A stretch of 64,000 nucleotides of DNA from Escherichia phage LYE-01. The position numbers were made by a program, and so were the translations under genes. The DNA is taken from the sequence record PQ303785.1; one strand, given 5' to 3'. The notes under the pieces were generated by a model. The model saw nothing but the letters and a program-made list of their open reading frames with translations, made no database searches and had not been told where the DNA came from. This document shows, one piece after another, positions 1,806-3,661 of the stretch (positions are counted from its first letter, which is position 1; each line of letters begins with the position of its first letter).

Positions 1806-2387
1806 ATGATTAAATTGGTATTCGCTTATTCTCCAACTAAAACAGTCGAAGGCTTTAATGAATTAGCATTCGGTTTAGGTGATGGTTTACCATGGGGACG
1901 AGTTAAAAAGGACCTCCAGAATTTTAAAGCTCGCACTGAAGGCACAATTATGATTATGGGTGCTAAAACATTCCAGTCATTGCCTACATTACTTCCAGGT
2001 CGTAGACATATTGTAGTGTGTGACCTTGAACGTGATTATCCTGAAACTAAAGACGGTGATTTAGCACATTTCTATATTACATGGGAGCAGTACATAACTT
2101 ACATTTCTGGCGGTTCAATTCAAGTGTCAAGCCCTAATGCACCATTCGAGGCTATGCTTGATCAGAATTCTAATGTAAGTGTAATTGGCGGACCCGCTCT
2201 GTTATATGCTGCATTACCTTATGCAGATGAAGTAGTTGTTTCTCGCATCGTTAAAAGGCATCGTGTTAATTCAACGGTTCAATTAGATGCAAGTTTTCTT
2301 GATGATATAAGCAAGCGTGAAATGGTTGAAACCCACTGGTATAAAATAGATGAAGTAACAACCCTTACGGAATCAGTGTATAAATGA
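1806..2387 (+). CDS. frd: dihydrofolate reductase
   Basis: 193 aa, matches T4 Frd length and position directly upstream of td; stop TGA overlaps a vestigial ATGAAA. Confidence 0.9.
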
Positions 2388-2407
2388 AATAACGCGTGGC
2401 GGAAAAT

Positions 2408-2755
2408 ATGAACTTTAATTATTATCCTATTCTATTAGAAAAAGACGCAAAACAACCAAAATGGCAGGGTCCTCAGTTTATTAAAGGCGTCTATCAATTA
2501 GTAGTTCCTAAAGACAAGATTTATAGTAGTTGTTTCACTGAATCCGCTTGCAGTATTTTCGGTAATAGTTCTCCGTATTGGAATTTTGATATAAAGCTGG
2601 ATAGAAATATTGATATTTGGTTGAAAGCTATGGATATTGACAATATCACGTTTGATGAGAATAATTATCATATTATTGGTCGTTTTTCCAAACGTGGTAA
2701 AGAATTATATTTCACGCCTGAAATTGAAAGAAAATTTGACGCTAAACCGTATTGA
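2408..2755 (+). CDS. hypothetical protein encoded by frd-td insertion, 115 aa (119 aa from GTG at 2396)
   Basis: ORF fills a 417-bp segment absent from the overlapping T4 frd/td junction; no motif recognised. Confidence 0.5.
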   Translation: MNFNYYPILLEKDAKQPKWQGPQFIKGVYQLVVPKDKIYSSCFTESACSIFGNSSPYWNFDIKLDRNIDIWLKAMDIDNITFDENNYHIIGRFSKRGKELYFTPEIERKFDAKPY

Positions 2756-2800
2756 TTATTTAGCTTCATAAAATGTATTATAATTTATATAAGGTACTAA

Positions 2801-3661
2801 ATGAAACAATACCAAGATTTAATTAAAGACATTTTTGAAAATGGCTATGAAACTGATGACCGAACAGGCACAGGAACAATTGCTTTGTTCGGTACTAAAT
2901 TACGCTGGGATTTAAGTAAAGGTTTTCCTGCAGTAACAACTAAGAAGCTCGCCTGGAAAGCTTGCATTGCTGAGCTAATATGGTTTTTATCAGGAAGCAC
3001 AAATGTCAATGATTTACGATTAATTCAGCATGATTCATTAATTCAAGGCAAAACAGTCTGGGATGAAAATTACGAAAATCAAGCAAAAGATTTAGGATAC
3101 CATAGCGGTGAACTTGGTCCAATTTATGGAAAACAATGGCGTGATTTTGGCGGTGTAGACCAAATTATAGAAGTTATTGATCGTATTAAAAAACTGCCGA
3201 ATGATAGGCGTCAAATTGTTTCTGCATGGAATCCAGCTGAACTTAAATATATGGCATTACCGCCTTGTCATATGTTCTATCAGTTTAATGTGCGTAATGG
3301 CTATTTGGATTTGCAGTGGTATCAAAGAAGTGTTGACGTGTTCTTGGGCTTGCCATTCAACATTGCATCATATGCTGCATTAGTTCATATTGTAGCTAAG
3401 ATGTGTAATCTTATTCCAGGAGATTTGATATTTTCTGGTGGTAATACTCATATCTATATGAATCACGTAGAACAATGTAAAGAAATTTTGCGTCGTGAAC
3501 CTATGGATTTATGCGAATTACAATTAAAATTTCCAGATGAATTTGATGAATGGGACACAGAATCACAGGTATTTTGGTTGAGTCAATTCGCAAAGCCGCA
3601 TAATTTTGTTCTTAACAACTATGTATCTCACCCTCCTATTAAAGGAAAAATGGCGGTGTAA
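2801..3661 (+). CDS. td: thymidylate synthase, uninterrupted (no group I intron)
   Basis: 286 aa continuous ORF, MKQYQDLIKDIFENGYETDDRTGTGT..., ends HPPIKGKMAV. Confidence 0.95.
   Translation: MKQYQDLIKDIFENGYETDDRTGTGTIALFGTKLRWDLSKGFPAVTTKKLAWKACIAELIWFLSGSTNVNDLRLIQHDSLIQGKTVWDENYENQAKDLGYHSGELGPIYGKQWRDFGGVDQIIEVIDRIKKLPNDRRQIVSAWNPAELKYMALPPCHMFYQFNVRNGYLDLQWYQRSVDVFLGLPFNIASYAALVHIVAKMCNLIPGDLIFSGGNTHIYMNHVEQCKEILRREPMDLCELQLKFPDEFDEWDTESQVFWLSQFAKPHNFVLNNYVSHPPIKGKMAV

Follow-up and report, generated by a model that had tools for sequence, protein, structure and literature searches.

We analyzed the junction between frd and td, the genes of dihydrofolate reductase (DHFR) and thymidylate synthase (TS), in a 64,000-nucleotide stretch of Escherichia phage LYE-01 (PQ303785.1; the window, denoted W in all comparisons), which belongs to a T2-like Tequatrovirus. 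A 417-bp segment absent from phage T4 lies between the two genes. This segment is most likely a resident gene, td.1, together with two short spacers, and not an insertion, the T4-type junction with overlapping frd and td being the derived state. The original prediction had seen in it an acquired cassette, inserted into a normally overlapping junction and bringing its own promoter. Its structural description was right, and its coordinates for the frd stop, the mini-frame behind it, both repeats, the open reading frame (ORF), the td start and the promoter-like motifs all hold (Table 1); neither the direction that it gave to the event nor its promoter is supported.

The BLAST comparison of the window with T4 gave two alignments, W1799-2389 and W2798-3325, which overlap in T4 by exactly the 9-mer TAAATGAAA. 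Therefore, W and T4 differ by an indel of 417 bp with a 9-bp direct repeat at its two edges, as had been predicted. The T4 junction sequence is ...tatataaATGAaacaatacc, and its core, GTATAAATGAAACAATACC, is obtained when one 9-mer is removed along with everything between the two copies. The flanking genes are the same in both phages; Frd of the window is 96% identical to T4 Frd and is annotated as DHFR in neighboring records. T4 lacks td.1, which is a rare state in sequenced Tequatrovirus genomes. The ATGA overlap of frd and td in T4 was reportedly described by Purohit and Mathews in 1984.

The ORF between frd and td is an ordinary, previously annotated accessory gene. It had been presented as unknown, yet it is already named td.1, encoding a hypothetical protein, in the T2H GenBank record AY262132.2 (protein ABI48932.1), the record that served as "T2" in the work of Wilson & Edgell 2009 (PMC2790892). 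In T2, RB14, RB27, AR1 and others the same gene occupies the same place as an unnamed "hypothetical protein", and a GenBank note for Shfl2 describes td.1 as similar to those of RB14, T2H and T6. The Td.1 proteins of the window and T2 are 99% identical (~97% for DNA); the spacers and both 9-mers are also the same, and nothing substantive differs. The protein matched the profile of PHROG 1928, a family of unknown function, with E 7.6e-35, its residues 4-111 aligning with positions 2-125 of the 126 in the profile. No paper found in the literature searched discusses td.1. Other GenBank records (H21, H25, H49, H74, H86, H91) label the ORF "putative homing endonuclease", "putative glucose-1-phosphate adenylyltransferase" or "putative dihydrofolate reductase"; none of the three labels was supported by any domain search.

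The ratio of nonsynonymous to synonymous substitution rates (dN/dS) of td.1 is 0.01-0.04 within the genus and 0.13 against the homolog in the metagenome contig L010; therefore, td.1 is a real, constrained gene, and the prediction of a genuine protein-coding ORF was confirmed. The protein is strongly kept within the genus, with at least 95% identity in 348 of 579 records. Its N-terminus, MNFNYYPILLE, is common to relatives at 62-65% identity, and the homolog alignments set the start at the ATG at position 2408. Family alignments show Q16, W19, G27, Y29 and the stretch G91-R-F-x-K-x-G97 as invariant or nearly so; the motifs Q-x-K-W, G-I-Y and G-R-F-x-K-x-G are shared with the PHROG 1928 relatives and the paralogs described below.

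The position of td.1 is conserved far beyond Tequatrovirus. Relatives with 25-65% identity stand right after frd in five other Tevenvirinae genera, namely Kanagawavirus (two phages), Jiaodavirus (Mineola), Gelderlandvirus (Melville), Moonvirus (Merlin) and Kagamiyamavirus (EcS1), and in five metagenome contigs. In two of the contigs (L010 and L011), Td.1 is 62-65% identical to that of the window; the other three (L033, L034 and L035) carry remote family members after the DHFR gene. In every locus opened, the 13 of 13 relatives examined as well as the window, the homolog is the immediate 3' neighbor of the DHFR gene, upstream of td. The tblastn search added 217 records of td.1 homologs at <60% identity from other genera, while a scan of IMG/VR revealed no further relatives of intermediate divergence. 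With homologs filling the same frd-td slot in five other genera and five contigs, and with td.1 as diverged as its flanks, the proposed insertion or acquired cassette is not supported; an ORF already in place in relatives is what the prediction itself had named as its refutation.

In these loci, the start codon of the td.1 homolog and the stop codon of frd usually overlap, and in most of them a second ORF of ~115 aa, located before td, is a Td.1 paralog (hhalign probability 99%, E 1.5e-18). As in the window, members of PHROG 1928 and of the paralog family in Kanagawavirus, Gelderlandvirus, Moonvirus and Kagamiyamavirus are always found immediately 3' of frd. In most other genera, however, the td.1 start overlaps the frd stop and the paralog comes next, whereas 20 nt uncouple td.1 from frd in the window, where nothing is left of the paralog except a possible 16-nt relic. 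The candidate relic, TTATATAAGGTACTAA, directly precedes the ATG of td and matches the 3' end of the paralog in two Kanagawavirus loci (L003 and L004) in register at 12 of 16 bases, a score reached by 0.02% of positions there. This match suggests that a two-gene array decayed in place. The fullest array is that of contig L010, with frd, td.1, the paralog, orf69 and td in this order.

The divergence of td.1 points in the same direction. Between W and phage F2, the synonymous divergence (dS) is 0.92 for td.1, 0.79-1.31 for td and 0.27-0.50 for frd; between W and T4, dS of the frd and td flanks is 0.16-0.19. The td.1 value is far above that of the T4-W flanks, and therefore the td.1 alleles are older than the split of those flanks. 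Moreover, sliding identity revealed a single conserved block (2201-2900) covering td.1 and both gene ends, without a step at the 9-mers. There is no donor: the phage collection contains nothing at 60-90% identity, and the nearest td.1 outside the genus, in the metagenome contigs L010 and L011, is only 62-65% identical.

Within Tequatrovirus, the frd-td slot holds td.1 with at least three junction variants, an unrelated 68-aa ORF (orf68, phrog_9550), or nothing. DNA of the td.1 segment (408 bp) is present in 363 of the 536 phage records that match frd/td, and orf68 in 165 phage records (137 of them at ≥95%). The T4-type junction, searched as a 53-mer, was found in 32 records, many of which are T4 itself and its laboratory derivatives. 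The overlap taken as the normal arrangement is thus a minority state. The td.1 alleles differ in their spacers: td follows after 44-45 nt in the T2/window allele, after 15 nt in Ge15, and after 13 nt in F2, where frd has 12 extra codons and an 11-nt overlap with td.1. The 20-nt spacer between frd and td.1 is kept in Ge15, Shfl2, slur02 and PTE-Eco15; in the window, the frd reading frame stays open through this spacer until a TGA at 2409-2411, which overlaps the ATG of td.1. In F2 (L024, MN864145, 551-1168), a 2-nt difference in an A-run abolishes the usual VYK-TGA stop, and the frd tail reads ...VYKNEIATGGKYEF; frd of contig L011 also ends with ...EF-TAA. We considered the extended frd of F2 as the ancestral junction; it is equally well explained as a derived 2-nt slippage and was not relied on.

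The second occupant, orf68, shares an ATGA overlap with frd and a TAATG junction with td (PYps10T, AUBRB02, JS98 and others). It is an alternative to td.1 in the same slot, but a different protein, and it coexists with td.1 and the paralog in L010, which suggests that the single-occupant alleles arose by differential loss. Both these and the empty alleles are most simply explained as differential losses from an L010-like array. The orf68/orf69 reading frames lie at 9217-9420 on the minus strand in JS98 (L012, NC_010105; unannotated), at 699-905 in L029, L030 and L032, and at 4670-4879 in L010. The 68-69-aa protein is unusually conserved: its identity between L010 and Tequatrovirus is ~80% by eye, compared with 47% for frd there. 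The td gene of the window has no intron, and its closest relative, IME340, has the td intron. Loss of td.1 by hitch-hiking with the I-TevI td intron was rejected, as all four combinations of td.1 and the intron exist, with both present in 90 records.

The history that we propose begins with an ancestral Tevenvirinae slot in which a td.1-family gene would have stood right after frd, usually stop/start-coupled and often followed by a tandem paralog before td. In Tequatrovirus, the paralog would have been lost, leaving a tail of ~13-16 nt that may now serve as the ribosome-binding region of td. The T2-type allele of the window would then have gained ~29 nt in the td-proximal spacer. The T4-type ATGA overlap would be a derived minority allele, formed most simply by deletion between the two copies of TAAATGAAA; alternatively, it could go back to the orf68 allele, in which a deletion would have joined the two copies of AATGA. 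Homologous recombination in the conserved frd and td ends would shuffle the td.1, orf68 and empty alleles among backgrounds.

The repeat itself is unremarkable. In the window, TAAATGAAA occurs in 9 copies compared with 3.4 expected, and three copies beyond frd/td are real gene junctions; sites elsewhere include 10757, 14620 and, on the minus strand, 15942-15950. Exact direct repeats of 8-12 nt are plentiful in the region 2200-3000. Most of the 9-mer match arises because frd ends with Lys-TGA, TAA stands before td, and the next gene starts with ATG-AA, as td.1 (Met-Asn) and td (Met-Lys) both do. We conclude that TAAATGAAA is a generic stop/start/Lys junction motif. Two copies would exist since T4-like junctions share one grammar, in which a stop overlaps or abuts an ATG followed by an A-rich second codon. 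The ATG AAA TAA mini-frame that was proposed to be a vestigial td start does overlap the frd stop, but an ATGA-coupled td.1 start or a longer frd tail could just as well have left it behind. In L010 and Merlin, the ATG overlapping the frd stop is the start of the td.1 homolog, and in F2 these bases (tataaaAAtgaaata) are read in frame as part of frd.

Deletions between short direct repeats in T4 were reportedly described by Pribnow in 1981 and by Singer and Westlye in 1988. Like these deletions and the modular shuffling of PeSL elements (PMC2839356, PMC4122927), the indel analyzed here is that of a whole small ORF at a gene boundary, with short direct repeats at the deletion end points. Unlike in PeSL shuffling, it has no promoter and stem-loop on either side, and the microhomology is the stop/start junction itself.

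Several observations weigh against a resident td.1. The empty ATGA junction, with its core GTATAAATGAAA unchanged, recurs in Mosigvirus (RB69, AV118) and Gaprivervirus (VR7), which are the closest genera to Tequatrovirus in frd/td identity among those compared; therefore, the empty state could be old there, and td.1 could have been regained long ago by recombination. The slot states are intermingled in neighbor-joining trees of the frd 3' end and the td 5' end, which means that recombination erased a clean polarity signal and that the trees could not settle the direction. The remaining ATGAAATAA is as expected if a duplication-type insertion had hit an overlap junction. Finally, the paralog relic is just 16 nt long and overlaps the Shine-Dalgarno (SD) site of td, and the constraint on that site could explain part of the match.

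These points can be assembled into a model in which the overlap junction is ancestral at least for the clade of Tequatrovirus, Mosigvirus, Gaprivervirus and Dhakavirus, and a td.1 cassette then entered or re-entered it through illegitimate or microhomology-mediated recombination, whereby TAAATGAAA was duplicated and a vestigial td start remained. The model accommodates the empty junction of RB69, AV118 and VR7, the VYK-TGA end of frd overlapping an ATG in all members of the clade, the mini-frame kept after the frd stop, and an indel bounded exactly by the 9-mer. Nevertheless, we consider it unlikely. It lacks a donor, the family is syntenic after frd in every relative examined, and the td.1 alleles are as diverged as the flanks and predate their T4-W split. 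Identity passes the repeats without a step, the td-proximal spacer resembles the 3' end of the paralog, the boundary 9-mer is a generic junction motif, and the segment has neither terminal inverted repeats nor a mobility gene. Even if an insertion did take place, the event would be ancient and not a recent gain by this phage; such an ancient regain of td.1 we regard as quite unlikely. We also considered that the segment is a mobile element, in the form of a transposon-like unit with a 9-bp target-site duplication, a free-standing homing-endonuclease gene, or a PeSL cassette. The latter consists of the early promoter TTTACW-N17-TAYWAT, in PST/T4, and an adjacent stem-loop that flank a variable ORF (Arbiol 2010; Comeau 2014; PMC4122927). 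The direct repeat at both edges, the promoter-like sequence on one side and the one GenBank record with the homing-endonuclease label would fit such an element, but Pfam and NCBIfam revealed no nuclease or transposase domain in Td.1 and there was no match among PDB sequences. Specifically, no GIY-YIG, HNH, LAGLIDADG or related domain was detected, and the free-standing endonuclease was rejected together with its label. There are no terminal inverted repeats at 2390/2797 and no significant stem-loop; the PeSL promoter form is unmatched, the best site being TTGATT-N18-TATTAT with 9 of 12 matches, which is not enriched over shuffled sequences. Moreover, the gene is always at the same locus and co-varies with its flanks, and the spacer motif (2760..2787) has no second copy in the window. 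Extremely improbable on these grounds, the mobile-element explanation is effectively refuted.

The role of Td.1 is approached through its family and predicted fold. Searches of Pfam, NCBIfam, PADLOC (whose models describe defense systems and not anti-defense proteins) and PDB sequences gave no match for Td.1, the paralog or orf68. The exhaustive hidden Markov model (HMM) search of 1.84 billion representatives returned only 49 clusters at 50% identity, all of them stand-alone proteins of 95-150 aa, bar three large matches to SprB or Ig repeat proteins, which we discarded as spurious; no informative domain fusions were found. The AF2 model of Td.1 (pLDDT 79, pTM 0.75) contains seven strands and one helix, forming a β-barrel with the single helix preceding the last strands. 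Its structural matches are weak, and nearly all are OB folds (RPA, SSB, Teb1, Stn1/Ten1, HIN). With low confidence, we describe Td.1 as a single-domain β-barrel with conserved aromatic and basic residues (W19, Y29, R92, F93 and K95). A dispensable OB-like binding or adaptor factor, directed at nucleic acid or a partner protein and made with DHFR and TS as part of the phage nucleotide/DNA metabolism module, is a role that we propose with similarly low confidence. We find it rather doubtful that the family and its tandem paralogs are dedicated DHFR partners, usually translationally coupled to frd and acting in the T4-type machinery for dNTP synthesis and replication as a previously unrecognized OB-like component or regulator, with the td.1, orf68 and empty states kept by host-dependent selection and not by neutral loss.

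The prediction had also named the locus as a prime place for an anti-defense gene. Td.1 might be an anti-defense or host-takeover protein, the td.1/orf68/empty polymorphism being kept by host-specific selection, which is compatible with a resident gene. Indeed, the protein is small, dispensable and encoded in the early-gene region, the slot is polymorphic with three states shuffled among backgrounds, and purifying selection is strong wherever td.1 is present. Judging from sequence comparisons, we nevertheless think such a role improbable: there is no similarity to any characterized protein, PADLOC gave no match within the scope noted above, and the ≥95% identity in 348 of 579 records marks Td.1 as very conserved in the genus. 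The invariable coupling to frd across distant genera also suits an accessory of a metabolic module better than a fast-turnover counter-defense gene.

The spacer before td had been credited with a promoter that keeps td expressed. It reads AGCTTCA, 10 nt, TATAAT, with the two motifs at 2762-2768 and 2779-2784. The canonical pattern of MotA middle promoters, TGCTT(t/c)A, 11-13 nt, TAnnnT, was searched as TGCTTNA-N11-13-TANNNT and has 9 sites in the window, none of them in the td.1-td spacer. The sigma-70-like matches are not enriched over shuffled sequences (16 compared with 13.4), RNA folds of both junctions showed no significant hairpin (z -1.4 for the ~29-nt segment; z +1.2), and an Rfam scan of the whole window was negative. 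The ~29-nt promoter-like segment is absent from Ge15 and F2, in which td follows td.1 after 13-15 nt; expression of td would, by this comparison, be independent of the promoter-like signals. The proposed promoter is thus not supported; a weak promoter may still exist in the segment, which is conserved among T2-type alleles.

Table 1. Coordinates of the features at the frd-td locus in the window.
Feature	Position	Strand	Description
frd (dihydrofolate reductase)	1806..2387	+	193 aa; end ...ESVYK-TGA, stop TGA 2385-2387; from the ORF list
Left TAAATGAAA copy	2381..2389	+	Last base of the Tyr codon, Lys codon, frd stop TGA, AA; left edge of the indel relative to T4
ATG AAA TAA mini-frame, ATGAAATAA after frd	2384..2392	+	Overlaps the frd stop
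frd-td.1 spacer, 20 nt	2388..2407	+	SD-like GGCGGA; read from the sequence
td.1	2408..2755	+	115 aa; PHROG 1928; ATG 2408, alternative GTG 2396
td.1-td spacer, 45 nt	2756..2800	+	97.8% conserved among the T2-type alleles sampled
~29-nt segment with promoter-like AGCTTCA...TATAAT	2760..2787	+	Absent from the Ge15 and F2 alleles
TTATATAAGGTACTAA	2785..2800	+	SD region of td; probable relic of the 3' end of the lost td.1 paralog
Right TAAATGAAA copy	2798..2806	+	TAA, then ATG and Lys codon of td; right edge of the indel relative to T4
td (thymidylate synthase)	2801..3661	+	286 aa; no intron

Local differences also stand out within the flanking genes. In the C-terminal part of td, ~100 nt (3504-3606) are wholly unlike T2 and T4, the rest of the gene being 95-99% identical; through this mosaic replacement, thymidylate synthase has a different surface segment. 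Differences from T2 and T4, most of them synonymous, are clustered at 3326-3360, exactly at the I-TevI cleavage and intron-insertion site, and might alter the susceptibility of the intron-less td to I-TevI cleavage. The interior of frd (2101-2200) is hypervariable, with 59-92% identity among otherwise close relatives, and the next 180 nt of frd are 92-100% identical.

T4 is an atypical T-even phage at the frd-td locus, and DNA that seems "extra" in comparison with T4 should not be taken for acquired DNA. Td.1 represents a strongly constrained family of ~110 aa, found in T4-like phages only and always right after the DHFR gene. Shared junction motifs could generally supply microhomology for whole-gene deletions in this genome, and the frd-td slot offers a clean natural case of how microhomology at gene boundaries, combined with flanking homologous recombination, leads to alternative small-gene alleles.

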